IMG/VR virus record: IMGVR_UViG_3300029305_012101
DNA from: an uncultured virus (IMG/VR IMGVR_UViG_3300029305_012101)
Taxonomy: Duplodnaviria > Heunggongvirae > Uroviricota > Caudoviricetes
Direction: 5' to 3' (one strand)
DNA: 64,000 nucleotides
The position numbers and the translations under genes were made by a program. This document shows, piece by piece, positions 22,674 through 35,738 of this stretch (positions within the stretch are counted from its first letter, which is position 1; every line of letters begins with the position of its first letter). Below the pieces are notes generated by a model that was given only the letters and a program-made list of their open reading frames with translations, was not told the origin of the DNA and made no database searches.

Positions 22674-23669
22674 ATGGGCTACACATTCAAGAAGATCACC
22701 TACCCGGTGCAGAAGCGCCGCGGACCCGCCCCGAAGACCATTGCAGCCGCCCAGGAGACCCTGAAGCGGCTGCGGTCCTTCCTGGACCGGGAGGAGCCGG
22801 AGCTGGTGTATTTCCTGGTCAACCTGCGGGGCGCCCAGGGTAAGGCGATCACCTACAAGGAGCTGCGGCAGGCCATCCTTGCCGGCGTCATCGATGAGAA
22901 CCTGCTGGAGGAATGGCGGCAGGACTATGTGAAATTCGTCAAGGAGCACTTGGAGCCGAAGTGGATTGAGGCCATGGAGGAGGCGGCGGAGGAGATCCGC
23001 CAGAAATACCCGGAGTGGTTTTTCGATCCCATGGGCGACGGCGTGAAGACCTGGACGGAGCAGCGGTCCGCGGATTTTGTCACCAGCGTGACGGAGAACC
23101 AGATCGAGGGCCTGCGGGCCGTTGTCAGGAGAGCGGCCGTTTTGGAGAACATGAGCGTGGACCTGCTGGCCAGGGCGATCCGGCCCATGGTGGGACTCTA
23201 CCACCAGCAGAGCGTGGCCAATCTGAAATACTTCGAGAGTCTGCTGGCCAACGGCGTCAGCAACCGGAAGGCGTTGGAGATGTCCACCCGCTACGCGGCC
23301 AGGATGCACCGCTACCGCGGCTATCTGATCGCCAGGACGGAGCTTGCCTTCGCCTACAACCAGGGCAGCTACGAGGGCACCAAGCAGGCCCAGGAGGCCG
23401 GCTACATGGGCGTGGTGATCAAACGGTGGTGTACCGCCGACGATGAGCGCGTCTGTGACGTATGCGGCAGCCTGGAGGGCAAGGTGATCGACATCGACGA
23501 GGACTTCTACTATGATCTGAAGGATCTGGACGGCCACGTCATCGGACGGCGCAGGATCAACCACAAGCTGATGGATGAGCCCCAGACCGGAATGGTCCCC
23601 CCTGCCCATCCCAGCTGCCGGTGTACCGTGATGTATGAGGAGATCGAGCCACCGGAGATGTACAGATGA
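22674..23669 (+). CDS. MuF / SPP1 gp7-like head morphogenesis protein (short form, no toxin extension)
   Basis: LIARTELAFAYNQG, KRWCTADDERVCDVC, PPAHPSCRC. Confidence 0.9.
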   Translation: MGYTFKKITYPVQKRRGPAPKTIAAAQETLKRLRSFLDREEPELVYFLVNLRGAQGKAITYKELRQAILAGVIDENLLEEWRQDYVKFVKEHLEPKWIEAMEEAAEEIRQKYPEWFFDPMGDGVKTWTEQRSADFVTSVTENQIEGLRAVVRRAAVLENMSVDLLARAIRPMVGLYHQQSVANLKYFESLLANGVSNRKALEMSTRYAARMHRYRGYLIARTELAFAYNQGSYEGTKQAQEAGYMGVVIKRWCTADDERVCDVCGSLEGKVIDIDEDFYYDLKDLDGHVIGRRRINHKLMDEPQTGMVPPAHPSCRCTVMYEEIEPPEMYR

Positions 23670-23704: not shown

Positions 23705-24448
23705 TCAGTATGGTTCTTTTTTGATCCGCAGCAGGACGGCGATCAGCCGCTTGGCCAGCGAGCGCTGCTCTGCCTGGGAGATGATCAGATCATACCGGGC
23801 GAGAAGATCCGCTTTTTGCTGAGACAGGGCCTCCCTGGTGAGCCCGGAGCGGCGAAGATCCTTTTCCCGGAAGGTCAAGAGCTCATCCATGGTGGCCAGC
23901 AGATAATCCAGATACTTTTTTGCGGTGGTCGGATCATCGGTGGTATTTACGATGGCCTGGAACTTTTCCCGCTGCTCCAAAACCTGCTGCAGGTATGGTG
24001 CAGCTTTCTTTGCGTCATCGCTGCTCATCAGATACCAAAGGATGGACAAACCGCTCGCAGCGAACACAGCAAGGACGAAGAGCGCGACACCAAGGCCGAT
24101 GGTGAAGAGAATGATAAGATCCAGGATGGCCATTGAGGACAGAATCGCTACAGCGACCGCTTCCTCTCCGGTAAGCGGCTTCTGGGGTGCAGCAGCTGCG
24201 ACAACAGGCGCGGACTTTCTTTTCGTGGCAGTCTGATGGTTGGCTTTGCGCTTTTTGCGCTTCCCGGAAGATTCCTTTACGAAGGAAAGCCCGGTGCCGG
24301 GAATATAGGCTGTGGTCCGGGTGCGGCCGGAGGCTGTTTTCGTGAAGCGGAAACCTTTGCGGCCCCAGCTGTAGCCAATTCCGCTCTTGCTGATGGTGAT
24401 CCGGGCGCCGCCGCCCAGGTTGATGCTTTTTCGATACCGGAAGCCCAT
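23705..24448 (-). CDS. DUF4236-domain membrane protein
   Basis: MGFRYRKSINLGGGARITISKSGIGYSWG...IPGTGLSF; two TM helices. Confidence 0.8.
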   Translation of the reverse strand: MGFRYRKSINLGGGARITISKSGIGYSWGRKGFRFTKTASGRTRTTAYIPGTGLSFVKESSGKRKKRKANHQTATKRKSAPVVAAAAPQKPLTGEEAVAVAILSSMAILDLIILFTIGLGVALFVLAVFAASGLSILWYLMSSDDAKKAAPYLQQVLEQREKFQAIVNTTDDPTTAKKYLDYLLATMDELLTFREKDLRRSGLTREALSQQKADLLARYDLIISQAEQRSLAKRLIAVLLRIKKEPY

Positions 24449-24451
24449 GGA

Positions 24452-24661
24452 TCAGTCCTCCCTTGTGTGTTCGATCAGATCCCCAGGCTGGCGATCCAGC
24501 AGGTTGCAGATGGCCTCCAGGCTGCTCCAGGATACGCCCTCCTTCTGCCGGAGTTTCTGGATGGTGGATTCGCTGAGCAGCTTGTCCTTGCGGAGGCGGC
24601 CGGTGTTATAGCCGGCGGCCCGCAGATCAGCCAGAACGTCGGTTTTATAGCGCAATGCCAT
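24452..24661 (-). CDS. Cro/C1-type HTH (HTH_26-like) regulator
   Basis: LLSESTIQKLR...SLEAICNLLDRQPGDLIE. Confidence 0.8.
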   Translation of the reverse strand: MALRYKTDVLADLRAAGYNTGRLRKDKLLSESTIQKLRQKEGVSWSSLEAICNLLDRQPGDLIEHTRED

Positions 24662-24685
24662 GGTATCTCCCCCCTCTTTTTTGAT

Positions 24686-24795
24686 TACACCGATTATAGC
24701 GCAGATTCTACACGGAAACAAGTGTACAAAATCACCAAAGATCAACACCGAAGTTCGTGCATTCTGTCAATATACATTACACGATAAAAGGTGTA
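24686..24795. promoter_or_regulatory. Operator array TACAC-N8-GTGTA
   Basis: Perfect at 24709-24726 and 24778-24795; imperfect at 24686 and 24744. Confidence 0.65.
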
Positions 24796-24864
24796 AAATA
24801 CAAGTGTAGTGAGGGGGGCGTGATCCCCCGGATGAGAGAGGCCTGATGGCCGGGAGGAAATGAC

Positions 24865-25086
24865 ATGAGCAGCAAGTATGAATGGTTCCCCATCGAGGAG
24901 ATGGATCTGGAAGACGGCACCCACACCGGGTATGCGGCCAAGGATCGCAACGGCGAATTGATCTGGATCACCCAGATCTCCGACGACACCTGGGATGTGG
25001 AGGTCAAAGTGGCTGATTACTTTGTCACCCTGGTCAACTGCAAGACCCTTACCTCTGCCAAGCGCTGGGTTGCCAGATACCTGTAA
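24865..25086 (+). CDS. Small acidic hypothetical protein
   Basis: GGAGG RBS. Confidence 0.65.
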   Translation: MSSKYEWFPIEEMDLEDGTHTGYAAKDRNGELIWITQISDDTWDVEVKVADYFVTLVNCKTLTSAKRWVARYL

Positions 25087-25137
25087 ACCGCTCTTGTTCC
25101 GCCAGGATAATGTGATCAAAAACAAGGAGGAAACGAC

Positions 25138-25299
25138 ATGAAAAAGTACAGCACTCAGGAAGTGATCGACATGGCTGCCGATTTCTACGACAGAGGGATC
25201 CTCACCCGCGTTGGTGTCAGGCGTTTTCTGGAGAGCCTGCTTGACACCGGCAGTGCGGAGTTCGATCTGTACAGTGTGTACGACCTGATCGTCGGCTGA
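25138..25299 (+). CDS. Small hypothetical protein (53 aa, not in ORF track)
   Basis: AAGGAGG RBS, MKKYSTQEVIDMAADFYDRG... Confidence 0.6.
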   Translation: MKKYSTQEVIDMAADFYDRGILTRVGVRRFLESLLDTGSAEFDLYSVYDLIVG

Positions 25300-25367
25300 C
25301 CCCGCGCCCCTGCTCCGGTCGGGCAATAGGCTGGAGCCCATGAGATCAAATTGAGGAGGTTTTCACT

Positions 25368-25595
25368 TTGAAAATTATTGACTACACCCTGTACATCCAC
25401 CGCTATCGCCGCCACCTATCCTTCGACAAAGTCGAAGATCTGCGCGAGGAGCTGAGCGGCTACTTCACCAAGAGCGAAATCGCAAGCGGTATCGTAGACC
25501 GACTCACAGACTTCAGCCACAAGCGCCCCCGTGACGGCATCATCACCAACAGTTATCAGGACATCGAAGTGTCTTGCTATGTAGAGGAGGAATGA
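25368..25595 (+). CDS. Hypothetical protein
   Basis: GAGGAGG RBS, TTG start. Confidence 0.6.
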   Translation: MKIIDYTLYIHRYRRHLSFDKVEDLREELSGYFTKSEIASGIVDRLTDFSHKRPRDGIITNSYQDIEVSCYVEEE

Positions 25596-25810
25596 CCATG
25601 TATCTGTTCGAGATCATCAACGATCACTTTGAGGTGGGCCAGCGCTACATCGGCAGGAATAACGGCGTGAGGCTGGTTGTGGACAGAGTCCAGGAGGTGG
25701 GCGGCAGGGCGAATCGCCCCATGGTCCATTTCCGCGATGAGAAGAGCGGCAGGATCCTGATCCATGATCTGGAGACGGCGAAGCGGCTGCAGCTGCAGTT
25801 GGTGAAGTGA
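25592..25810 (+). CDS. Hypothetical protein
   Basis: Coupled, GAGGAGG RBS. Confidence 0.6.
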   Translation: MTMYLFEIINDHFEVGQRYIGRNNGVRLVVDRVQEVGGRANRPMVHFRDEKSGRILIHDLETAKRLQLQLVK

Positions 25811-25821
25811 GGAGGGGCGCC

Positions 25822-25989
25822 ATGAAAATTCCGAAATACGTCAGAACCGGGGACGGGTATATCGGCGTCCTGGTGAAGATTGATGACATCGGCCCGCTCT
25901 ACCGGTTCCCCGGTGGGGTCCGCTATTCGGATCAGTGGGAGATTGCCAATGGCAGCGACAATCGAGAGGATCTGGAGGGAAAGGAATGA
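25822..25989 (+). CDS. Hypothetical protein
   Basis: GAGGAGG RBS. Confidence 0.55.
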   Translation: MKIPKYVRTGDGYIGVLVKIDDIGPLYRFPGGVRYSDQWEIANGSDNREDLEGKE

Positions 25990-26252
25990 AGTACAGAGCA
26001 GTGGCCACCCTGACCGACGGGGTGAAGCTGTGGGACGTGATCATCTACAGCGAGTACGGATCCATGGAGGCGGCCCTGGAAGGCGCCCGCCTCTTCGCCT
26101 CCCACGGCTACGACATCGCGAAGCTGCGGATCGAGCGGGTGGAGGAGGACGGCATCGGCTGCGGTCTGTGCAGGCACTGGGACAAGCGGCTGTGCCATGA
26201 GCCCTGCGCGTCCTGCCGGCACTACAGCAATTTTGAGCGGAGGGAGGGATGA
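25986..26252 (+). CDS. Hypothetical protein with C-terminal Cys cluster
   Basis: CGLC...PCASC. Confidence 0.55.
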   Translation: MKYRAVATLTDGVKLWDVIIYSEYGSMEAALEGARLFASHGYDIAKLRIERVEEDGIGCGLCRHWDKRLCHEPCASCRHYSNFERREG

Positions 26253-26255
26253 TCG

Positions 26256-26477
26256 ATGGCGTTCGGTGATACGATCATGTTCTGGAAGCCTGAAGGCGAT
26301 CTCACTTTGTTTCATTGCCCGTTTTGCGGTGAGCATAATGTCGTATATGAGAAATACCAACATGCAGTTGGGGAGCGGTGGCGAGTAGTATGTCTGAGCT
26401 GCTGCGCCTCTGTGGATCCTGGATATGCTCAGGAGCGCCATGTGGTGAAGGAGATGTGGAATAAGAGGAGCAAATGA
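26256..26477 (+). CDS. Lar-like restriction alleviation Zn-ribbon protein
   Basis: CPFCG...VVCLSC...WNKR. Confidence 0.7.
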   Translation: MAFGDTIMFWKPEGDLTLFHCPFCGEHNVVYEKYQHAVGERWRVVCLSCCASVDPGYAQERHVVKEMWNKRSK

Positions 26478-26947
26478 TGGAAATCAAAATTGATGTTAGC
26501 AATTATCTGACCCATGAGGAAATCAAGGAAGAATGCAGAATGGCTATTCGTAGCATTATCAAAGAGCAGTTCTCCAAGGAAAGTCAGATTCAGCGGCTTA
26601 TTTCCAATTTAGGATATGAGTTCATTTTCGAGGCTGTTTCACAGGAAATGGGAATGGATGCGCGGGAGGCAATCTCTGAGGTCGTTTTTGACCTTGCAAG
26701 TGATGTGAGCCATATTCGATATGAAATGTGGCGCAGAAAAGATGCGTGGGAAAGAACGGAGTCTCCGGCGATTACGATCATGAACGAAGCGATCAAGGAG
26801 AACAGGGATTTTATCGAGGCCAGCGTAAGGGCGGCAATTAAGGAATTTGAGTTCCCTGATGTGCGGCAAGCGATGTACGACATGGCACAAGAGGTTATCT
26901 ATGAAAAGCTGTTTGGAGGGAACGGAGATGATGGAGGGCTGACCTGA
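26474..26947 (+). CDS. Hypothetical protein
   Basis: Coupled, GAGGAG RBS, AT-richer. Confidence 0.65.
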   Translation: MMEIKIDVSNYLTHEEIKEECRMAIRSIIKEQFSKESQIQRLISNLGYEFIFEAVSQEMGMDAREAISEVVFDLASDVSHIRYEMWRRKDAWERTESPAITIMNEAIKENRDFIEASVRAAIKEFEFPDVRQAMYDMAQEVIYEKLFGGNGDDGGLT

Positions 26948-26971
26948 TGGTCGGCCCTTTTCCCTTCCCGG

Positions 26972-27006
26972 GTGCAACCAGAGAAGCCGGCCGCCGGTGA
27001 TATATT
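26972..27006 (+). promoter_or_regulatory. Putative late promoter 2 (GTGCAACC-N21-TATATT)
   Basis: Shared motif and spacing; precedes cargo locus. Confidence 0.65.
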
Positions 27007-27038
27007 GGAAAGAGAATTATCATCAGGAGGGCGGCGTG

Positions 27039-29525
27039 ATGGCCGGAAAGATGTTTGAACAGATCATTGAAAAACTGAATCCCTACCATGGATCCGACGG
27101 CCGTTTTTCCACAGCGGAGGGCGCCGCATCCTTCACCTACAAGCCCGGCGCCAGCACCGCCCACGACAACGCCATCGCCCGGGAAAAAGAGCGCACCGGC
27201 AGCGCCAAGGGCTTCAAGGGCACCCTGTACCATGGCAGCCCCGCCACGGATATTGAGGAGTTCGACATGGGCCTGGCCGGCCGGAACACCTCCAGCGGCG
27301 AGAAACTGCTTTTTTTCACCGACAGCAAGCAGATGGCGGACGACTTCTCCTATGAGCGGCTGGATGGCTCCAGCAAGTTCATGCAGCGGAGAGGCAAAAA
27401 GGGCCGGGTCTACGAGGTGGACGTGGAGATCAAAAAGCCGCTGGATCTGCGGAATCTCAGCGAGAAGGATCTGTCCAACCTGATGAAACTGGACGTGGAC
27501 GGGATCCTGACCCGGGAGATCGCGGTGGAGCTCAGCGGCAAGAACAACCAGCTGCTGAAGACCTACCTGGATCTGACGGCGGAGAGCCTGATAGGCCTGG
27601 GCTACGATGGCCTGATCGCCCACACCGGCAAGGCCGGCCACAACTCCATCGAGTATGCGGTGGTGGACAGCAAGCAGGCCAGGATCCGCAAGGGCGTGGC
27701 CAAGAGCTTTGCTGAGATCCTGAAGGGCAACTCTGAGAAGCAGAAAAAAGCAAAGTCGCTCATTGAACGGTGGCAGGAGGACGACCATCCTATTCGTGCG
27801 GAGCGGTTAGATGTTCGCAAGTTTAACGATAACCACGATCCCAAAACCGGTCAATTTGCCCCCAAAGGCGGGGCCGGTGGTGCTGGATATGGCATCACAT
27901 CGGAGCAGCAGGAAAAATTGACATCATTGATCCAGAGCGGAGCCATTTTTTCAGCGGTCAAATATAAAAAAGAGATCGGCATGGACGATGATGAGTTCAA
28001 AAAACTCAAGGAGAGCATCCAGGGAAAAAAGGAAACAAAGCCGAAGGTCGAACCCAAGCCCCAAAAGAAACCGGAACTGTCGGATGAGTCCAAGGAGCGG
28101 ATCAGCCGCTTTCAAGCGGAAAGACAGGCAAAAATAGATGCGCTTGCGGAGGCCTGCGGTGTTGACCAGGAAAAGGCGAAGGAATACTTCGAGGCACTTG
28201 ATGGCTGGACCGGTGGCGATTATATCGGCGTTAGGGCGTTGCAGAGCGGCAGGATCTCCGATTATCCATACTACACCAGGGATGATATTGCAAAAACCAA
28301 GAAACAGGCCGAAGCTATCGAGGCCTTTATCAATGACGCACCTCCGTATGAAGGCACATTATACCGTGGAATTGGAGCCGATGTTTCTCAATTCAAAGTA
28401 GGCGGCCGCATTGACATGGGCGGCACTTCCTCTTGGAGCTCATCCAAGGATATGGCGGAGGACTTCGCCATGGGTGAGGGCGGCGGTCGGAATAGCGTCG
28501 TTTTGATCTCTACAAAGAAAATCAGCAAAGCGGCAGGTATCGAGTCCATCATGCAGACCGGCGAGGATGAGGTCCTTGTGTCGGAGAGCGTCAAATATGA
28601 TGTGAAAAAGATCATGCGGTCTGGCCGCATTGACTACGTTTATGTGGAAGAGGCGGCGGACACCATTGGAAAGTCCTTCGCCGAGATTCTGAAAGCCAAC
28701 CCCTACCATGACCCCAGCAACGGGAGATTCACGACCGGGCCCGGTGGCGGCGGTGCCTGGGCGGAGAGCATGGAGGCGGAGAAGGCCAGCGTGATGGCCA
28801 TGAAGCCGGCCAAGCGGGCGATGTATGTGCTGGATCACGACGGCGAGACCTACGACAACTGCGTGGCTGCCATGCAGAACGGCGAGACTGAGGCCCTAGT
28901 GAACAACTACTTCGCCGTGATGGCGGCAAACGGCGATCCCACACCCACCAAGCCCGTCAGCGATCAGCTGGATGGGCAGATCCGGCAGGATGTGGAAGGC
29001 AGCAAGAAGTACAGCGGCTATGAAGAGGCCAGGACGCAATACATAAAGGACATGAGCGGGCTGGACGATGACCAGGCCCAGGCCACCATGAAGGAGTTCC
29101 AGAAGTGGTTCGGCGGATCCTGGGATGACGCAGACACGGCCACGCTGGATAAGTACATTGAGGAGGATCATGCCTTTGAAGGCACGATGTACCGGGGAAT
29201 GAAGTTCGACCACGATGGTTTTGATGCCTTCATGAAGGACATCGGCCCCGGCGCTCAGATCCGCATGCAGCGCAACTCCAGCTGGTCCAGCGATGAGGAA
29301 GTGGCCAGGAGCTTCGGCGCTCACATCTACAACGATGTGGACACGGTCATGATCACCTGCGTGAAAAACAGGACATCGGCACCGGTGGCCCATCTCTCCA
29401 CCGCAGGCGAGTCCGAAGTGCTGGCCCACAGCAAGGCAAGCTGGACCGTGCTGCACAGCGAAGTGGTGCAGTGGCCCAGCGGCGCCAAGAAGGCATATCT
29501 GACAGTAGTGGAAACGGGGGAATGA
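27039..29525 (+). CDS. Polyprotein with three ADP-ribosyltransferase-like domains, each preceded by an NxxHD..GRF-type tag
   Basis: Domain 1 YHGS..F..FFT..VYEV..GYDG..EYAV (ART-PolyVal-like); domains 2 and 3 YRG..SSWSS..E-x-E (R-S-E clade). Confidence 0.8.
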   Translation: MAGKMFEQIIEKLNPYHGSDGRFSTAEGAASFTYKPGASTAHDNAIAREKERTGSAKGFKGTLYHGSPATDIEEFDMGLAGRNTSSGEKLLFFTDSKQMADDFSYERLDGSSKFMQRRGKKGRVYEVDVEIKKPLDLRNLSEKDLSNLMKLDVDGILTREIAVELSGKNNQLLKTYLDLTAESLIGLGYDGLIAHTGKAGHNSIEYAVVDSKQARIRKGVAKSFAEILKGNSEKQKKAKSLIERWQEDDHPIRAERLDVRKFNDNHDPKTGQFAPKGGAGGAGYGITSEQQEKLTSLIQSGAIFSAVKYKKEIGMDDDEFKKLKESIQGKKETKPKVEPKPQKKPELSDESKERISRFQAERQAKIDALAEACGVDQEKAKEYFEALDGWTGGDYIGVRALQSGRISDYPYYTRDDIAKTKKQAEAIEAFINDAPPYEGTLYRGIGADVSQFKVGGRIDMGGTSSWSSSKDMAEDFAMGEGGGRNSVVLISTKKISKAAGIESIMQTGEDEVLVSESVKYDVKKIMRSGRIDYVYVEEAADTIGKSFAEILKANPYHDPSNGRFTTGPGGGGAWAESMEAEKASVMAMKPAKRAMYVLDHDGETYDNCVAAMQNGETEALVNNYFAVMAANGDPTPTKPVSDQLDGQIRQDVEGSKKYSGYEEARTQYIKDMSGLDDDQAQATMKEFQKWFGGSWDDADTATLDKYIEEDHAFEGTMYRGMKFDHDGFDAFMKDIGPGAQIRMQRNSSWSSDEEVARSFGAHIYNDVDTVMITCVKNRTSAPVAHLSTAGESEVLAHSKASWTVLHSEVVQWPSGAKKAYLTVVETGE

Positions 29526-29526
29526 G

Positions 29527-32259
29527 ATGAGCATTCGTGAACAGTGGAAAAGTGAAAAAGCTTCTGATTGGAGCGTGACGCCTTCCAAGGTGAAGCTGCA
29601 GCCCATCAAGCGGATAGAACCGGTGGCCAAAACCTTCAGTGAGATCCTGGAGAAGGCCAATCCCTACCATGATGAACTGGGGCGGTTTGCTACGGCTCCC
29701 GGTGGTGGCGGAGGCGGCGCCGTGGGCAAAAACGGCGTGACCACGGAAGAGCAGGATGCGGCCTACATGGCGGCTATCGAGTCCGGCGATCTGGAGACCG
29801 CGCAGCAGATGGTGCTGGATACGGCCAAAGCGGTGGGCGCGAAGACCTTCGCCAATCCCGACACCACGGCCTACAGCATCCGCCGAGGCCCGGAGCCGAA
29901 AACCACGGTGACGGTCTACAAGACCTTTTTCGTGGATGAGAACGGCAACCCCTCCGCCCTCTTTGTGGAGGGTACGGAGCGGCTGCCTGTGGACGTATGG
30001 CTGGACGCCAAGGACGCCTACCACTTCCAGGCGGACAACGGGAAAATGTACACCCCCTCCCGGAAGAATCCCAATTCCGGCGGCAGCGGAAAGACCGGCG
30101 CCAACATCAAGATCCCCAACGACCAGGTGCGTCAGGAGCTGATCGACCAGGGCTTCCTGCCCGAAGGTTCCACAGCCAAGGACGTGACTGCGCTGGCATA
30201 CCGGCCGGGCTGGCATGCCGGAGATCTCCCCTTCTTCCCCCAGGGTGGCAAGCAGGGCAACCCGGAGCTGACCGAGAGCGGCAAGCCCAACAAGCGCTAT
30301 GACCCCAGCAAGCCCGCTACCAACTACCAGAACATCCACCGATGGAACCAGGTCGTTTTCGAGTGCGAGATGGCGGCAGACGTTGACTACACCAAGAGCT
30401 CTACGGTGAAGTCCGGCCCCCACAAGGGCAAGACCAAGTACACCGACATGCAGCAGATGCCCAGCGACGGCTATTACAAGTTTGCGACAAATCCCATGAC
30501 CAACGCCAACGAGCTGGGCACCTGGTACATCTCCGGCTCTCTGAGGATCAAGCGGGCCCTGACCCAGCAGGAGTGCGACGACATCCTGGGCAAGAACGGT
30601 TTTAAGCCCCAGGAATGGGAAGGCGGGAAGCTGGACCTGGGCAAGCTGGGCTACAATCCCAACAAGACGGACCGGGGCACAAAGCTGCTGGATCCGGTGA
30701 CATACGACGACAGCGGCAAGGTGATCCCCCTGTCCCAGCGCTTCGACAGCAGCAGCGACGATGTCAGAAAATCCGACGACGACGGCCTCTGCACCATCTA
30801 CAAGACAGACGAGGACAAGCGGCTGGTATTCGGCTGGGCGTCCATCTCCATGACGGTGGATGGTGAGCAGCTGGTGGACCGGCAGCACGACATGATCGAC
30901 CCGGAGGATCTGGAGGAGGCCGTCTATGAGTATGTGCTGAATTTCCGGGACATGGGCGAGGAGCACGTTCCCTCCCTGCGGAAGAAGGGCAAACTGGTGG
31001 AAAGCTGCGTCCTGACAGAGGAGAAGCAGCGGGCCATGGGCATCCCGCCCGGCATCCTGCCCGTGGGCTGGTGGATCGGCTTCAAGATCGAGGACGACGA
31101 GGCCTGGGAGAAGGTGAAAAACGGCACCTACAAGATGTTCTCCATCGAGGGCAAGGCCAACCGGGTGCCGGTGGAGAAACGGGATGCCAAAAAAGACTAT
31201 GACGCTTACCCTGAGTATGGCATGTGGTTGGAGGAGAATCTGGACGCCACTATGGATGAGCAGAAGGCAGCCAAGAAGCACTACTTCAGCAGATCCAGAG
31301 AAGAAAACCGAGAGGCGAACAGGAGGTATTGGTCAGTGGGAAAGACCTTTGAAAACAGCACACGATTTGAGCAGATCATGGAGATCGGAAAATCCGATCA
31401 CATCGACCGGATTGTGGAGATCGAGAAGTTCAACGACAGGCACGATCCGGCAACCGGCCGTTTTGCCCCCAAGGGCACCGGCGTAGGATCAGCCAGCGGC
31501 GGCGCAGGCAAGGCCATCATCACCAGCGGCAAGGTCAGCGAAAAGAATGTGGCGAAGCATGTGGAAAAGGTCCGCAAAGCCGTTGGCAACAGTTATGACC
31601 CGATCACGAAGGAAGATGCGAATCTGGACAAGATCAAGGAGCGCGGCGGCTGCACCGATGCGGAAGCGAAAAAGTGCGCGGAGCTGGCCGATGGTGTATT
31701 TGCGAAAGCTGCGGCAGCTGAGCCCCAGATCACAAAGGACGTGGTTGGTCTGGTGGCCGACAATGGCGGCAAGATGTACGGCCTCGCACACCGCATGAAG
31801 CAGCCCAGCTCCATGGGCGGCAAGATCGCAGCGGATTCCAAAACCGATAACGTCAGTTTCGAGGAAGCAGCGGCAGCCATCAAGGATTCTGTGCGATATA
31901 CCGCAATTTTTGAGGATGGCGGATTTGTTTCCGGCTACAACAACGTCAAGAAGAGCCTGGAAAGCCAGGGCTACAAAGAGGTACGCTGCAAAAACTTCTT
32001 CCAGAAGTATGAGGACGGCACCTCCTGCCAGAAGGCTGTTCAGTGCGTTTACAAGAACAAGGATGGCCTGAGCTTTGAGCTGCAGTTCCACACCTATTCC
32101 ACCCAAGGCGCCAAAGAGGTGAATCATCCCTTCTATGAAGAGCAGCGGGCAGTCGGCACAACGAAGAGACGCTTTGACAAGCTGAACGCAGCGATGACGC
32201 AGATCTCCTCTTATTCCGCGGTGCCGGACGGTGTGTTGGATATCAAATCTCACCCTTGA
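29527..32259 (+). CDS. Polyprotein: polyvalent-protein domain + XkdF-like prohead serine protease + RelA/SpoT-like synthetase
   Basis: Protease about 30790-31170 (KRLVFGWAS..D..D..GEEH..LVES..GWWIGFKI..FSIEG); synthetase about 31700-32259 (HRMK..S..K..IKDSVRYT..KN..FELQFHT..H..YE). Confidence 0.82.
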   Translation: MSIREQWKSEKASDWSVTPSKVKLQPIKRIEPVAKTFSEILEKANPYHDELGRFATAPGGGGGGAVGKNGVTTEEQDAAYMAAIESGDLETAQQMVLDTAKAVGAKTFANPDTTAYSIRRGPEPKTTVTVYKTFFVDENGNPSALFVEGTERLPVDVWLDAKDAYHFQADNGKMYTPSRKNPNSGGSGKTGANIKIPNDQVRQELIDQGFLPEGSTAKDVTALAYRPGWHAGDLPFFPQGGKQGNPELTESGKPNKRYDPSKPATNYQNIHRWNQVVFECEMAADVDYTKSSTVKSGPHKGKTKYTDMQQMPSDGYYKFATNPMTNANELGTWYISGSLRIKRALTQQECDDILGKNGFKPQEWEGGKLDLGKLGYNPNKTDRGTKLLDPVTYDDSGKVIPLSQRFDSSSDDVRKSDDDGLCTIYKTDEDKRLVFGWASISMTVDGEQLVDRQHDMIDPEDLEEAVYEYVLNFRDMGEEHVPSLRKKGKLVESCVLTEEKQRAMGIPPGILPVGWWIGFKIEDDEAWEKVKNGTYKMFSIEGKANRVPVEKRDAKKDYDAYPEYGMWLEENLDATMDEQKAAKKHYFSRSREENREANRRYWSVGKTFENSTRFEQIMEIGKSDHIDRIVEIEKFNDRHDPATGRFAPKGTGVGSASGGAGKAIITSGKVSEKNVAKHVEKVRKAVGNSYDPITKEDANLDKIKERGGCTDAEAKKCAELADGVFAKAAAAEPQITKDVVGLVADNGGKMYGLAHRMKQPSSMGGKIAADSKTDNVSFEEAAAAIKDSVRYTAIFEDGGFVSGYNNVKKSLESQGYKEVRCKNFFQKYEDGTSCQKAVQCVYKNKDGLSFELQFHTYSTQGAKEVNHPFYEEQRAVGTTKRRFDKLNAAMTQISSYSAVPDGVLDIKSHP

Positions 32260-32284
32260 CAAACTACGATAAGCGTAGTAAAAT
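32256..32284 (+). promoter_or_regulatory. SigmaA promoter for the downstream immunity-like genes
   Basis: TTGACA(32256)-17 nt-TAAAAT(32279) with palindrome ACTACG-N5-CGTAGT in the spacer. Confidence 0.75.
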
Positions 32285-32317
32285 AACAATGCGGGGTGTG
32301 CCCCGGAAAGCGAGGTT

Positions 32318-32539
32318 ATGACGATGAGCACGAAGAATCGCTACTATGTCTATCGGGACGAGGCCGGAAAGGTGCGTCGCCTGGCGATGATCGGAACCGT
32401 GAAGGGCGAGTTCTGCGCCTATGGTTACGAGAGCGGCGGCTGGGTGGCTATGCCTGCCCTGTTCAAGATCGAGTGGGAAGTGACTGACTACGACGAGATC
32501 ACCGAGGCTGAGGCCAAGAAGATTATGGAGGAGATTTGA
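32318..32539 (+). CDS. Putative immunity protein for the alarmone synthetase
   Basis: 73 aa directly after synthetase; ends YDEITEAEAKKIME. Confidence 0.6.
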   Translation: MTMSTKNRYYVYRDEAGKVRRLAMIGTVKGEFCAYGYESGGWVAMPALFKIEWEVTDYDEITEAEAKKIMEEI

Positions 32540-32540
32540 C

Positions 32541-32963
32541 GTGGGACATGATGTTTTGAGCGCGGCGCTGCGGATTGCGATTTATGCCCATGACGGACAG
32601 GTGGACCGGGCGGGAAAGCCCTATATCTTCCACCCCCTGACGGTGGCCACCATGACCGACAGCTTCGATGCGTTCATTACCGCCATTCTCCACGACGTAC
32701 TGGAGGACTCCGACGTTACGGCTGGTGATCTGTTGGCCGCAGGGATCCCGGATCACATTGTGGAGGCGTTGGCGTTCCTGACCCATGACAAGGACGAGCC
32801 CTACATGGCCTATGTGGAGAAGATCAAGAGTAACGATCTGGCCCGGGCTGTGAAGTTGGCCGACCTGAAGCATAACAGTGACCTGAGCCGGCTTCCCGTC
32901 GTGACGGAGAAGGACCGGTATCGGGCGGAGAAGTACAAGCGGGCCATGGCTCTGCTGGCCTGA
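32541..32963 (+). CDS. HD-domain small alarmone hydrolase (Mesh1/SAH-like)
   Basis: AHDGQVDRAGKPYIFHP, AILHDVLED, VKLADLKHNSD. Confidence 0.88.
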   Translation: MGHDVLSAALRIAIYAHDGQVDRAGKPYIFHPLTVATMTDSFDAFITAILHDVLEDSDVTAGDLLAAGIPDHIVEALAFLTHDKDEPYMAYVEKIKSNDLARAVKLADLKHNSDLSRLPVVTEKDRYRAEKYKRAMALLA

Positions 32964-32978
32964 TGCTGGAGGGATTGC

Positions 32979-33701
32979 ATGAGAACAAAACTGAAAAAGC
33001 TGTTTTTGAGCAGCGTTGATACCGTGCGGGCGGGGGCCAACCAGGAGGCCGACATCTGCCTTTTCAAGAGCGCGGATGGTGCGGAAGCTCCGGCGCAGGA
33101 GATCCCCATCGACGACGGCACGTTTCTGACATATTCCGACGCCCTGGCCAAGTCGATCCTGAGCATCCAAGGGGATGAGACCCTGGACGAGGCGGCAAAG
33201 GCGGACATGATCCAGAAGAGCTTCGAGCAGTTCAATGAGGCTGTGGAGAAGATCAACCATTATCACGATGAGCTGGGCCGGTTCACAACGGCCAGCGGCG
33301 GCATCGCCCACGCCACCGTGCAGAACGAGGGCAGCACCACCAACCTGCGTCACGGCACCAGCCCCAAGGGCGGCTATATGCTGGTGACGAAGGAGGACGC
33401 TGCCCGCGCTCAGCAGGTCTCCGTCAACAAATACTGGAGCAAGGACAAAAAGCGCAAGGAGATCCGCAAGGCCCTGGACGACTTCAAGGAGAAGAACAAG
33501 GACATCCTGGTGGATGGCGGCGACAACGGGAAGTTCCTGGGCACCTGGTTCGACAAGAAGAGCGGGACCCTTTGGCTGGACGTGTCCACCAACTTCACCG
33601 ACAAGAAGGCAGCCATCAAGGCCGCCAACGATGCCGGCGAGATCGCCATCTGGGACGTGAAGGCCGGCGGAGAGATCCGCCTGCGGGATACGCATGCGTA
33701 A
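32979..33701 (+). CDS. Scaffold/protease-associated N-terminus + tag + unknown effector domain
   Basis: LSSVDTVRAGANQEADICLFKS N-terminus; EKINHYHDELGRF; GST...GGYML...GTWFD..G.LWLDVS...IAIWD. Confidence 0.6.
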   Translation: MRTKLKKLFLSSVDTVRAGANQEADICLFKSADGAEAPAQEIPIDDGTFLTYSDALAKSILSIQGDETLDEAAKADMIQKSFEQFNEAVEKINHYHDELGRFTTASGGIAHATVQNEGSTTNLRHGTSPKGGYMLVTKEDAARAQQVSVNKYWSKDKKRKEIRKALDDFKEKNKDILVDGGDNGKFLGTWFDKKSGTLWLDVSTNFTDKKAAIKAANDAGEIAIWDVKAGGEIRLRDTHA

Positions 33702-33714
33702 GGAGGAAAGACGT

Positions 33715-33840
33715 ATGAGCAAGAAGTTTATCGGTTATTCCAACGATGTGGACGAGATCATGGACATGCTGGAGGAGGCCGGCGCCTTCGATGAGGAAGA
33801 GGGCGCAGAGGATCAGATCCAGGAGAAAGAGGAGAGCTGA
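33715..33840 (+). CDS. Small acidic protein (41 aa; possible immunity; not in ORF track)
   Basis: TAAGGAGG RBS; MSKKFIGYSNDVDEIMDMLEEAGAFDEEEGAEDQIQEKEES. Confidence 0.65.
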   Translation: MSKKFIGYSNDVDEIMDMLEEAGAFDEEEGAEDQIQEKEES

Positions 33841-33842
33841 TC

Positions 33843-34727
33843 ATGGATCGGTTCGATCAGATCGTCCATAAAGCCAGGTTTGACCGCATTGTGGAGATCG
33901 GGAAGGCCAACCCCTACCATGATCCGAAAACCGGCCGGTTCACTACGGCAAACGGCGGCGGAGCCGGCGGGATCTCCTTTTCCGCTGCTTCCACCAAGGC
34001 GGAGGCAAGAGAGTACGCAAGGACGCAGCTTGGCTTTTCCGGCACGGTGGACTACAGTTATTCCTACATCGATCAGAAGACGGTGCAGCAGGTTTTCGGT
34101 GAGCTGGATCTGGAGACGGTCAACCATGTGAACAAGACCATCACAGAGATTCAGGAGCGCTACCCGGAGCTGAAGGGCGCCGTGACAAACTTGGGCGTCA
34201 GCACCAGGAGTGTTTATGCAGAGGTTGTGTACAGCGGCCGGGACGGCAGCGCCAGCCTGATGATCGGTGCCAAGGCATACGGGAAAGGCCTGCAGTCGGT
34301 ATACGACAGCTACGCCGAGGACGTGGATCTTGGCTATCATCCCAAGGGCACCACGGGCGACGCCATTTTGTGGCATGAATACGGCCATGTGTATGCCGGC
34401 ATCGGCAATGAGAAGGCCTGCGGATCGATGCTGAACGTCAGAAACAAGATGAGCGCGATCCACAACAACGTGGCTGAAAACGAGTGGCGAAACACAGCCA
34501 TCAGCAAGATGCTTTCTGACAGTAAGTTGAAGGCGGAACACGACATGCTGGGGCTGGAGTTCTCTGCCCAGGCGCTTTCCGCCAGTTTCAACAGGAAGGT
34601 CAGCGGCTACGCGACGAAAGACAATGGTGAGCTGTTTGCTGAGGCATTCGCAGCCCACAACACCGGAAACGGCAACCGATGGACCGACGCCCTGATGGAG
34701 GCGGCGGGCGCAGACAGGAGGAAATGA
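33843..34727 (+). CDS. Tagged zincin metallopeptidase
   Basis: EIGKANPYHDPKTGRF tag; HEYGH; VSGYA...ELFAEAF. Confidence 0.8.
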   Translation: MDRFDQIVHKARFDRIVEIGKANPYHDPKTGRFTTANGGGAGGISFSAASTKAEAREYARTQLGFSGTVDYSYSYIDQKTVQQVFGELDLETVNHVNKTITEIQERYPELKGAVTNLGVSTRSVYAEVVYSGRDGSASLMIGAKAYGKGLQSVYDSYAEDVDLGYHPKGTTGDAILWHEYGHVYAGIGNEKACGSMLNVRNKMSAIHNNVAENEWRNTAISKMLSDSKLKAEHDMLGLEFSAQALSASFNRKVSGYATKDNGELFAEAFAAHNTGNGNRWTDALMEAAGADRRK

Positions 34728-34731
34728 AACC

Positions 34732-34878
34732 ATGGTCATGATCCCCGATATTCTGAAAAAGCGCAGGGATGAATGGGCATTCTCCGAAGAGGAACCCTGG
34801 AAGCCCGAGGCGAAGGACAACGCTTCCGACGAAGTGAAGAAAGCCATTGAGGAGTTTTTGGCTGAGGCCAAAGGTTAA
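34732..34878 (+). CDS. Small protein (48 aa; possible peptidase immunity; not in ORF track)
   Basis: MVMIPDILKKRRDEWAFSEEEPWKPEAKDNASDEVKKAIEEF; AGGAGG upstream. Confidence 0.6.
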   Translation: MVMIPDILKKRRDEWAFSEEEPWKPEAKDNASDEVKKAIEEFLAEAKG

Positions 34879-34894
34879 TATGTGAGATCCATTT

Positions 34895-34925
34895 GGGAGG
34901 GACATTCGTGTCCCTCCCTTTTTTT
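34895..34925 (+). terminator. Rho-independent terminator closing the cargo locus
   Basis: GGGAGGGACA-TTCG-TGTCCCTCCC then T7. Confidence 0.85.
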
Positions 34926-35047
34926 ATGCACAGGGCTCCCGCCGGAACCCAGTGAAACGGTTCCGGTGGGAAGAGGAGGCGTAATGGCGTGAGCGAATTT
35001 TCGCCGGAAAGGCGGAAATAAGTGATACAAAATTTACGCCGACGAAG

Positions 35048-35082
35048 GTGCAACCTAAGAAATTACTGTGTGGTCATATAAT
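35048..35082 (+). promoter_or_regulatory. Putative late promoter 3 (GTGCAACC-N21-TATAAT)
   Basis: Shared motif; precedes scaffold/capsid. Confidence 0.7.
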
Positions 35083-35147
35083 GATTTTATGAGAATTCCC
35101 ATTCTCAGCGGCCAAAGGCCAACAACACACAGAAAGGAAAGATCCGC

Positions 35148-35738
35148 ATGATCACCATCGACAAGAGCAGATTCACAGCGGAGCAGCTGGCCCAGTACGA
35201 GGCGCTGGTTGCCATCGGTAAGGCCGACGTTGACCCCGAGGCCGCCGAGAAAATGATGGAAGAGGATAAGCCCCCCTTCCCCAAGAAGAAGACCGAGAAA
35301 GCAGAGGTAGAAGACATGGAGAAGTCCGCATCCCCCGAGCTGACCGCAGCTCTGGAGCAGCTGGCAGATCTGAAGAAGTCCATCGAGATGAAGGAGTTCA
35401 CAGACATCGCCAAGAAGTATGCTCCCCTGGGTAAGAATGAGGCTGAGCTTGCCCAGACGCTCTACGACATGAAGAAGAGCAACGAGGCCAACTACAACGC
35501 ATTCATCAACGTCCTGGACGAGAGCCTGGGCCTGGTGGAGAAGAGCGGCCTGTTTGCCGAGATCGGCAAGAGCGCAGGCAATCCCACTGCTGCCGGCGGC
35601 GCTGTGGCCAAGGCTGAGGCCAAGGCCCAGGAGCTGATGAAGTCCGATCCCACCATGGACTACACCACCGCTCTGGCTAAGAGCTGGGAGGATCCCGCTA
35701 TCATGGCAGAGTACGACTCCGAGTATTTCGGCAGATAA
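35148..35738 (+). CDS. Capsid scaffolding protein
   Basis: Helical and acidic, repeated KS sites (MEKS, LKKS, VEKSGLFAEIGKS); precedes capsid genes. Confidence 0.7.
   Translation: MITIDKSRFTAEQLAQYEALVAIGKADVDPEAAEKMMEEDKPPFPKKKTEKAEVEDMEKSASPELTAALEQLADLKKSIEMKEFTDIAKKYAPLGKNEAELAQTLYDMKKSNEANYNAFINVLDESLGLVEKSGLFAEIGKSAGNPTAAGGAVAKAEAKAQELMKSDPTMDYTTALAKSWEDPAIMAEYDSEYFGR

Follow-up and report, generated by a model that had tools for sequence, protein, structure and literature searches.

An Apk/EAS-type pyrophosphokinase domain joined to the XkdF prohead protease in the head operon of a gut prophage

The head polyprotein and its neighbourhood

The window, that is the whole stretch of 64,000 nucleotides of viral DNA analysed here, comes from a gut prophage with a temperate-type head operon. 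Among its terminase, portal, scaffold and capsid genes lies a long ORF, followed by two small genes, with these features:

29527..32259, + strand: head polyprotein of 910 aa, consisting of a tag, an unknown domain (about 60-410), the XkdF protease, a second tag and a synthetase domain
30793..31164, + strand: XkdF/S78_2 prohead serine protease domain, residues 423-546 (Pfam PF14550, E 3.8e-21)
31426..31464, + strand: lysine followed by the motif FNDRHDPATGRF, preceding the synthetase; predicted protease site and putative head-cargo tag
31642..32256, + strand: Apk/EAS-type pyrophosphokinase (RelA/SpoT-like SYNTH), residues 706-910, assigned from an 8VX3 match, a structure model, a fold match and invariant catalytic residues
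31978..32049, + strand: rebuilt acceptor loop, with R820-N823, an inserted helix with Y828, and QKAVQC replacing YKGxN
32256..32284, + strand: predicted sigma-A/70 promoter TTGACA-17-TAAAAT, overlapping the toxin stop and preceding the two protective genes
32318..32539, + strand: IapK/Tis1-type immunity protein, 73 aa, assigned from profile matches, gene position, a complex model and a weak Tis1 fold match
32541..32963, + strand: Aph1-type HD (p)ppApp hydrolase, 140 aa, with a 7SMG match and the signature D22, K94, D114, R117, K131, Y132

The PF14550 match in the polyprotein scores 75.8 bits against a cut-off of 24, and H480 and S539, which would be the catalytic residues of the protease, are kept in aligned relatives. 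For residues 60-412 the ESM Atlas named no family. The preliminary description had placed a gene start at 31423, which does not hold, since this position lies inside one uninterrupted ORF (29527-32259), at the motif between K634 and F635, and has no start codon; a stand-alone gene from 31423 is thereby ruled out. Its view that the synthetase is attached to the protease rather than to MuF was correct: XkdF is in the same 910-aa ORF, in which Pfam finds no MuF domain, and MuF is encoded separately and free of toxin. Four further genes of the operon are relevant:

22674..23669, + strand: stand-alone MuF minor head protein, 331 aa, MuF domain at 200-320, no C-terminal toxin
26997..29525, + strand: sister cargo protein, 842 aa, with three tags, each preceding an ADP-ribosyltransferase-like module
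32979..33701, + strand: 240-aa protein with a scaffold-like N-terminus (phrog_17741 2-41), a tag and an unknown domain
33843..34727, + strand: tagged protein of 294 aa, HExxH (HEYGH) motif present, a probable zincin

The 842-aa sister protein matches PF18760 (E 2.5e-11) and, weakly, PF01129, together with phrog_16619 and phrog_832. Minus-strand ORFs at 29353-31281, 31489-32331 and 32523-33722 gave no Pfam match under E 0.25, and we read them as GC-rich coding shadows. No resolvase was found and no integrase located.

The synthetase domain occurs at 100% identity in three IMG/VR contigs, and a contig from run X6, which is not flagged as the source, covers 30538-33080 with zero differences; the arrangement is thus not an assembly artefact. 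Run X8, from a related phage, had no cover over 31740-32653 and is uninformative, and the GTDB genomes contributed 1 locus only.

The synthetase domain and its rebuilt acceptor loop

The RelA/SpoT-type motifs noticed at the outset all lie in a single frame of ORF 29527-32259 (RMKQPSSMGGK at 31792, IKDSVRYT at 31879, CQKAVQC at 32026, FELQFHT at 32074 and NHPFYE at 32122). Pfam itself does not recognise the domain, and PADLOC matched none of the three proteins (synthetase, 73-aa and HD). The domain matches SaEAS (8VX3) in sequence at E 8.6e-14, and its structure model (pLDDT 97.5) superposes on 8VX3 with a TM of 0.85. SaEAS is the closest solved structure and has the RYT, EvQFHT and H..YE motifs in common with our domain (PMC12691689, partial text). 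Unlike SaEAS and the other exported alarmone synthetases, the protein described here has no signal peptide, and the carriers named in the part of PMC12691689 available to us (Sec, WXG/LXG, XopAD, MuF, DUF4157, Rhs/PAAR) do not include a protease or portal. Since near relatives with this fold produce (p)ppGpp or both alarmones (same paper), the fold does not fix the product.

The SYNTH fold is complete in its donor-site and catalytic residues and in the RYT (syn2) and H..Y (syn4) signature. Nine catalytic residues (K758, S762, K766, D787, R790, T792, E851, Q853, Y870) are invariant in 62/62 variant domains and in 44/44 clade-type representatives. What is absent is the syn3 GxN with its preceding G-loop tyrosine, which reads QKAVQC here. 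The early observation that CQKAVQC had taken the place of the usual Y-K/R-G-x-N/H loop is borne out across the family, as the acceptor tyrosine is found in 0/62 variant domains versus 77/77 canonical ones. The changes at the acceptor site (Y>Q, G>A, N>Q) occur together, and with them a new E818 that is invariant (62/62) and a near-invariant R820 and Y828. Judged from sequence comparison, CQKAVQC marks a conserved phage clade of 62 domains rather than decay; pseudo-enzyme decay or a sequencing error is contradicted by the identical contigs, run X6, the clade-wide conservation and the substitution rates. The dN/dS values, 0.04-0.26 in the 6 unsaturated pairs among 11 computed (the window's own gene being in none of the 6), indicate that the clade remains under purifying selection. 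All trees are FastTree trees only. Judging from the covariation only, this clade's own helix, which carries Y828, has likely taken over from the missing G-loop tyrosine.

In FaRel2 a Y-to-F change at the acceptor-stacking site impairs the enzyme (PMC11782079, in the text available), and changes in the GxN of Apk2 inactivated it progressively (PMC12226406). Because the tyrosine is invariant in the canonical domains and these mutants are impaired, Q-K-A-V-Q could either lower or redirect the activity. In a sub-clade of 22 members that carries H at this site, H867 is lost as well (0/22) and both protective genes are missing (0/19 loci), while neither protective gene is present in 3/16 loci of the Q-clade. 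Immunity genes accompany 43/60 canonical loci versus 0/19 H loci (Fisher p 1e-8, with loci that are not independent). The unprotected Q and H loci show that known protection is not a condition for carrying the rebuilt enzyme. The strings QKAVQC, QKAIQC and HKSVQS occur 0 times in the 6 supplementary files of PMC12691689, where YKGVNT/YKGINT are many, and our literature search found no paper on this clade, on the tag or on DUF7211.

The two protective genes and their predicted promoter

The preliminary description had proposed that a 73-aa gene and an HD hydrolase follow the synthetase in the Apk2-like order of toxin, immunity and hydrolase, and homology confirms this for both. The 73-aa family profile matches the iapK-position genes of three named MuF-Apk2 phages, here proxies for the studied strains, at E 1e-13, 5e-11 and 2e-10, and all of its 84 matches (84/84) among 13,458 ORFs start between -100 and +150 nt from a synthetase stop. 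Another close system is Apk1/Tas1-Tis1 (6OX6), in which a family profile finds Tas1 at E 2e-5; Apk1/Tas1 differs in being a T6SS PAAR effector without hydrolase and in keeping Y-x-G-x-N. With the 73-aa model as query, VIA placed Tis1 at rank 3 of 48,161 chains, a weak match (Z 4.8, rmsd 5.0, 65 aligned); Foldseek returned no match for this model, and searching PDB sequences with the profile of the immunity family yielded Kelch noise only. The model of the complex of the synthetase and the 73-aa protein scored 0.83, versus 0.58 for the best control, by a mark that 116/157 solved and 2/215 mismatched pairs reach, although a like complex, Tas1-Tis1, is already solved and the predictor may simply have reproduced it. 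At least 90% of contacts are shared between runs, the pLDDT of the partner is 88, and the modelled contacts are on the acceptor side (the loop at 830-835 and 839-841, D787, E851 and Y870). The model thus supports a position of the 73-aa protein at the acceptor site.

The HD protein, a short single-domain SAH with its HD motif at H51-D52, aligns with Aph1 (7SMG) without gaps over 133 aa at E 6.5e-34. It is identical at 5/6 positions of the Aph1 signature (D24, R96, D116, R119, K133, Y134), and at the R96 position it has K, which the homologue of the S. pneumoniae phage has too. According to PMC10083569, D24, D116, R119 and Y134 are the residues that mark specificity for (p)ppApp, and their equivalents are kept in 10/10 Q-clade loci having a hydrolase.

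This pair of partners bears on the substrate. An early suggestion was that the synthetase might modify the tRNA 3' end, and pyrophosphorylation of the CCA end as by FaRel2 or CapRel would agree with an altered acceptor loop and with the appearance of CapRel (7ZTB) among the fold matches, at rank 30. Toxins of that type have pZFD antitoxins that block the donor site, and their G-loop tyrosine is retained (PMC11782079, partial text), whereas the partner here is of the IapK/Tis1 type, is modelled on the acceptor side and is followed by Aph1. As the accessible part of the same paper reports such a partner pair for enzymes that make (p)ppApp but not for toxSAS that modify tRNA, the tRNA option is disfavoured, and we regard it as highly improbable. 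A different change of acceptor, in which the rebuilt loop would admit another small nucleotide, be it GTP/GDP, a pyrimidine or one used in signalling, or several of them, and the hydrolase would be a broad safety net, seems to us unlikely. The concerted loop changes with the new E818, R820 and Y828 speak for it, as does the difference in product among EAS relatives on one fold (PMC12691689, text seen in part), but the linked hydrolases retain the adenine-specific D24/R119 pair in 10/10 Q-clade loci, and motif swaps did not turn Apk2 into a (p)ppGpp maker (PMC12226406).

The best of 6 promoter-like sites in 26500-35200 is TTGACA-17-TAAAAT, with 11/12 consensus matches, and it recurs in 11/16 Q-clade loci versus 1/48 control windows. 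In the same interval no promoter match belonging to the synthetase gene exceeds 9/12. Two protective genes under a strong predicted promoter imply real toxicity, and this tells against a weakened (p)ppApp synthetase of which a few injected molecules would modulate and not kill the host, with the H sub-clade further along this path and its immunity dropped. Such an enzyme would fit the crippling effect of losing the stacking tyrosine in RSH enzymes (PMC11782079, available part), the loss of H867 and the disappearance of the protective genes from 19/19 H loci; for the window's copy, which retains both genes, we consider it rather unlikely.

Proposed head cargo and function

The tag xNPxHDxxGRF occurs in 7 copies in the window, all in four head-operon genes and every one after a lysine, so that six other modules of the operon are headed by it as well. 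It is present in 22/25 clade proteins, where the preceding residue is Lys in 10/10 XkdF fusions and Arg in 7/7 HK97-type portal fusions having the tag, and 8 hydrophobic-x-Lys-small sites occur in the 196 aa of the window's scaffold; the patterns for tag and cleavage behind these counts were drawn up after the sequences had been viewed. It is likely, from these patterns, that lysine followed by xNPxHDxxGRF is a protease-cut head-packaging tag. Our literature search found no paper on XkdF cleavage specificity. The T4 capsid targeting sequence is similar in being a short cleaved tag that loads cargo (PMC9026906, partial text), and differs in that the conserved part here would remain on the cargo after cleavage. 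Polyvalent and head-fused phage effectors, that is multi-effector head proteins as here, have been described, and known fusions join RelA/SpoT to MuF, and Nudix and ART to MuF, portal or a capsid-processing serine peptidase (PMC5512222 and PMC9503650, both in part). Neither a RelA/SpoT-XkdF fusion nor the NPxHDxxGRF tag is described in the parts of PMC5512222, PMC9503650 and PMC9026906 available to us.

Among 24 long relatives with the variant domain (proteins of 500-1593 aa only), the carrier is XkdF in 9, an HK97-type portal in 8, a Mu-type portal in 2 and a minor capsid protein in 1, the remaining 4 having a carrier of no known family; PF04233 (MuF) is found in 0/24. Stand-alone forms of the domain also occur, and a canonical-loop domain is likewise fused to XkdF (locus L053). 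These portal and minor-capsid carriers and L053 rule out the protease fusion as a unique feature.

The closest known systems are the MuF polymorphic toxins Apk2-IapK-Aph1 from prophages of B. caccae, S. pneumoniae, M. haemolytica as well as P. multocida (PMC10083569, PMC12226406), with which our locus shares the synthetase family, gene order, homologous immunity and hydrolase genes and a temperate phage head operon; identity to the MuF proteins of S. pneumoniae, Mannheimia and Pasteurella phages is ~30-34%. It differs from them in its carrier (XkdF and not MuF), in syn3 (Y-x-G-x-N to Q-K-A-V-Q, plus the inserted helix), in the separate clade of its synthetase, and in a 59-nt gap with the predicted promoter where the genes of Apk2 loci are coupled.

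On balance we lean towards a virion-packaged, protease-released (p)ppApp synthetase of the Apk2 type with two-gene protection of lysogens. From its position, the polyprotein would be expressed late together with the head operon, and would enter the prohead both as part of the protease and through its tag. Maturation cleavage by XkdF after K634 would release a fragment of ~276 aa, tag plus enzyme, with F635 as its N-terminus, which could leave the head together with the DNA, reach a naive cell and there convert ATP to (p)ppApp; host metabolism would then be slowed, or cells hit but not productively infected would be killed. Lysogens and the producing cell would be protected by the immunity protein, plugging the acceptor site, and by the hydrolase, recycling the product, as their families suggest, and in the lysogen both would be expressed from their own predicted promoter. 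No Apk2 toxin has so far been demonstrated in a virion (PMC10083569). Virion delivery, as proposed initially, appears likely, given that the domain is either joined to head proteins or carries the same kind of tag as other head cargo. The same observation, made in diverse phages, and the missing promoter of the synthetase render it improbable that the enzyme is not injected and acts in the producer instead, being released at lysis against neighbours or serving as a prophage-keeping addiction module, although the separate promoter of the protective genes would fit addiction or kin protection and, for MuF toxins, PMC10083569 keeps both roles under consideration.

More speculatively, and with less confidence than in the packaged toxin, we can envisage that a widespread gut/rumen phage lineage loads a re-engineered synthetase by means of swappable protease-cut tags (xNPxHDxxGRF, elsewhere DUF7211), that the nucleotide signal from the rebuilt pocket is another one or has been tamed, and that the H sub-clade enzyme is injected free of immunity to manipulate stringent or anti-phage signalling of the host and not to poison it. 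The role of phage-borne (p)ppApp toxins and their carriage in virions are stated as unresolved (PMC10083569, PMC12226406), and the locus offers a sharp test, as it predicts a mature N-terminus (F635) in virions and, for the antidote genes, a lysogen promoter. Should the repeated tag prove real, Firmicutes phages would have in it a portable signal for loading the head. Finally, the clade could be regarded as a natural experiment on RSH specificity, in which a tyrosine whose loss is crippling in the laboratory has been dropped with purifying selection retained, and dropped in two steps, to Q with antidotes and to H without them.

The protease-borne synthetase and its phage

The motifs of the alarmone synthetase named in the preliminary description all lie within the C-terminal 205 residues of a single 910-aa ORF, and the domain is attached, as proposed there, to the protease and not to MuF: the XkdF prohead protease forms the middle of this ORF, while MuF is a separate gene without a toxin. 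H480 and S539 are presumably the catalytic residues of the protease, judging by its family. The cargo region contains:

26997-29525, +, 842-aa cargo protein; each of its three ADP-ribosyltransferase-like modules is tagged (one ART-PolyVal, two Alt/VIP2-like)
29527-32259, 910-aa ORF with protease and synthetase
29700-30760, +, residues about 60-410 of that ORF, a tagged domain of no named family
32318-32539, 73-aa immunity-type ORF
32541-32963, 140-aa HD hydrolase ORF

A Pfam search did not recognize the synthetase domain. It matches SaEAS (8VX3) by sequence (E 8.6e-14), and its model (pLDDT 97.5) matches the same structure in fold (TM 0.85), followed by RelP and Tas1. One contig, from a run that is not marked as the source, covers the protease, the synthetase and the two genes after them without a difference. 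The domain at 29700-30760 matches phrog_30118 (E 4e-13) and otherwise unnamed viral clusters; in relatives, Nudix or ART-PolyVal takes its place on this protease.

The source record (65,484 bases, of which the window is bases 1-64000) is classed as a complete provirus. Judged by its gene set (DnaD-like replication genes, terminase, portal, MuF, scaffold, capsid and tail sheath), the phage is temperate and contractile-tailed. The host is probably a Firmicutes, going by DnaD; the sole genome match of the variant clade is a Clostridiales MAG, and public runs containing the phage are labelled feces or gut metagenomes.

We favor, at somewhat better than even chances, a (p)ppApp synthetase that would be packaged in the phage head, cut free by the protease and injected, with protective genes expressed from their own predicted promoter in the lysogen. 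The analysis establishes the anatomy, family assignments, clade and conservation; packaging, cleavage, injection, product and promoter activity are inferred. The locus would work like Apk2-IapK-Aph1, the MuF-fused toxin, immunity and hydrolase set, but falls outside Apk2 by definition, lacking both MuF and Y-x-G-x-N.

A rebuilt acceptor loop

We compared 107 locus domains under 90% identity (from 164 loci) and 32 database proteins, a set that splits into 77 canonical and 62 variant rows (39 Q, 1 I and 22 H, after the residue replacing the acceptor-loop Tyr), counts that are not frequencies, as the scan patterns were biased towards the variant. In FastTree trees a single branch sets all variant rows apart (support 97 with the loop, 85 without residues 817-841), and the H sub-clade has support of 99-100. 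Y835 is present in 77/77 canonical and 0/62 variant rows; in the latter G837 has become mostly A/S and N839 mostly Q, and E818 (62/62) and a short helix with Y828 (57/62; F in 4) have been gained. K758, S762, K766, D787, R790, T792, E851, Q853 and Y870 are retained in 62/62 variant rows. Six unsaturated pairs give dN/dS values of 0.04-0.26; of the other pairs, four are saturated and one is identical. We take the K/S/K/D/R/E/Q set to map to RSH catalysis, from family knowledge and the FaRel2 residues named in the accessible part of PMC11782079.

A 1.84-billion library, searched with a profile in which 38 of 107 rows were variant, holds 5,580 representatives of the synthetase family; 44 of the best 150 are clade-type, with the catalytic set in 44/44. 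Ten of the best 150, mostly very long proteins, naturally carry Phe where the G-loop Tyr would be:

P0051, P0055, P0057-P0059, P0069, P0092, P0093, P0116, P0160

The exact strings QKAVQC, QKAIQC and HKSVQS are missing from the six supplementary files that accompany the EAS survey (PMC12691689), where canonical strings are common, and from the accessible PMC10083569 supplement, a search with no positive control; the supplements of PMC5512222 and PMC9503650 could list such fusions.

That this rebuilt loop changes the acceptor is the foremost of the alternatives, though an unlikely one; an attenuated synthetase comes second and is likewise unlikely. The strongest hint that the rebuilt pocket lowers or changes activity comes from the H clade, which appears unprotected and has lost H867 (0/22). 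For loci whose sequence runs on for 700 nt or more past the synthetase (12/107 left out), immunity and hydrolase genes were each found in 0/19 H loci. A divergent H immunity could escape the immunity profile, which was built from Q and canonical loci, but in many H loci the next gene is already one for terminase, connector or other cargo. The Q clade has immunity in 10/16, hydrolase in 10/16 and either in 13/16; canonical loci have immunity in 43/60 and hydrolase in 18/60.

Protective genes and their predicted promoter

The alignment of the HD hydrolase of the preliminary description with Aph1 (7SMG; E 6.5e-34) contains no gaps, and D22, K94, D114, R117, K131 and Y132 stand at the positions of the Aph1 specificity signature, given in the available text of PMC10083569 as D24, R96, D116, R119, K133 and Y134. 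Among 13,458 ORFs from 164 loci plus the window, the family seeded by the 73-aa protein has 84 matches at E<0.001 (7 duplicate the gene of the window itself, 2 lie on the opposite strand), all starting within -100 to +150 nt of a synthetase stop. In three named MuF-Apk2 phages, proxies for the strains assayed, its 43-row profile matches the genes at the iapK position (E 1e-13 to 2e-10), and Tis1 ranks 3 of 48,161 chains for the protein's model, a weak match (Z 4.8). The model of its complex with the synthetase scores 0.83 against 0.58 for the best control, on a scale whose mark 116/157 solved and 2/215 mismatched pairs attain, and this score may stem from the known Tas1-Tis1 structure. In the predicted complex the synthetase is contacted at its loop, D787, E851 and Y870. 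A tRNA target, raised in view of the altered loop, is therefore very improbable: in the accessible part of PMC11782079, enzymes that make (p)ppApp are linked to Tis1-like blocking of the acceptor site, and those that modify tRNA to blocking of the donor site. In L037, L026 and L131 (comparison loci) the immunity domain is fused N-terminally to a longer protein resembling a head protease or scaffold.

A candidate promoter precedes both genes:

32256-32284, predicted promoter TTGACA-17-TAAAAT, overlapping the toxin stop, ranked first among 6 sites over 8.7 kb

Sites with at least 10/12 matches occur in the same 150 nt in 11/16 Q-clade loci (window included), 1/20 H-clade and 6/69 canonical loci, and in 1/48 control windows inside toxin genes, a contrast somewhat inflated since intergenic DNA is AT-richer than coding controls. 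A lysogen may thus produce both antidotes with its head operon silent. Past the last cargo gene, a strong terminator-like hairpin (34895-34918, +) precedes the scaffold gene; similar sequence occurs in other contigs of the examined runs.

Putative tags and head cargo

Across all six frames of the window the putative tag N-x-x-H-[DG]-x(2-4)-G-[RQK]-F has 7 copies, which are confined to the four cargo genes that separate MuF from scaffold. Each copy stands two residues after a Lys and ahead of a distinct domain; the motif is present in 22/25 long clade proteins. The residue before it is Lys in 10/10 XkdF fusions, Arg in 7/7 tag-bearing HK97-type portal fusions and His in L107. In line with these residues are 8 hydrophobic-x-Lys-small sites in the 196 aa of the window scaffold, E-x-R-S/A near the capsid boundary of capsid precursors in the S78-protease loci L008 and L085, and L/I-x-H-S/A in the protease-capsid linkers of L098 and L102. 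Tag and cleavage patterns were picked after inspection of the data, and are a lead rather than a test. Effectors fused to MuF, portal and capsid-processing peptidase (PMC9503650, PMC5512222) and cleavable targeting in T4 (PMC9026906) are described in the accessible parts of these papers. We consider it quite improbable that the enzyme is not injected, and favor a released, injected synthetase.

No obvious hydrolase gene adjoins the 842-aa cargo gene. A related phage has lost one tagged module, the middle one of this protein, through an in-frame deletion of 969 nt bounded by two KSFAEILK repeats, which suggests that the repeats also shuffle cargo. Cargo genes sit between two parts of a split scaffold (phrog_17741), whose N-terminal 41 residues (32979-33101) head a 240-aa gene and whose C-terminal half is the 196-aa gene (35148-35738). 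A small-gene block (23705-26947), variable in the related phage, is inserted between MuF and the cargo genes and includes two minus-strand genes (a 247-aa membrane-type protein and a probable HTH).

A DUF7211 peptide (H-[HY]-G-[IV]-x-G-[MQ]-K-W-G), preceded by L-x-H, heads a wide range of genes in H-clade loci such as L098, L100, L102, L107, L015 and L116; 12/24 H representatives likewise begin with a DUF7211 peptide. It looks like a second head-cargo tag; our literature search found the term DUF7211 in no paper. Some variant synthetases (loci L009, L088 and L105; library representatives P0066, P0086 and P0107) follow yet another N-terminal motif, W-[VR]-T-x-x-G-x-[HR]-I, the third of its kind and a possible further tag.
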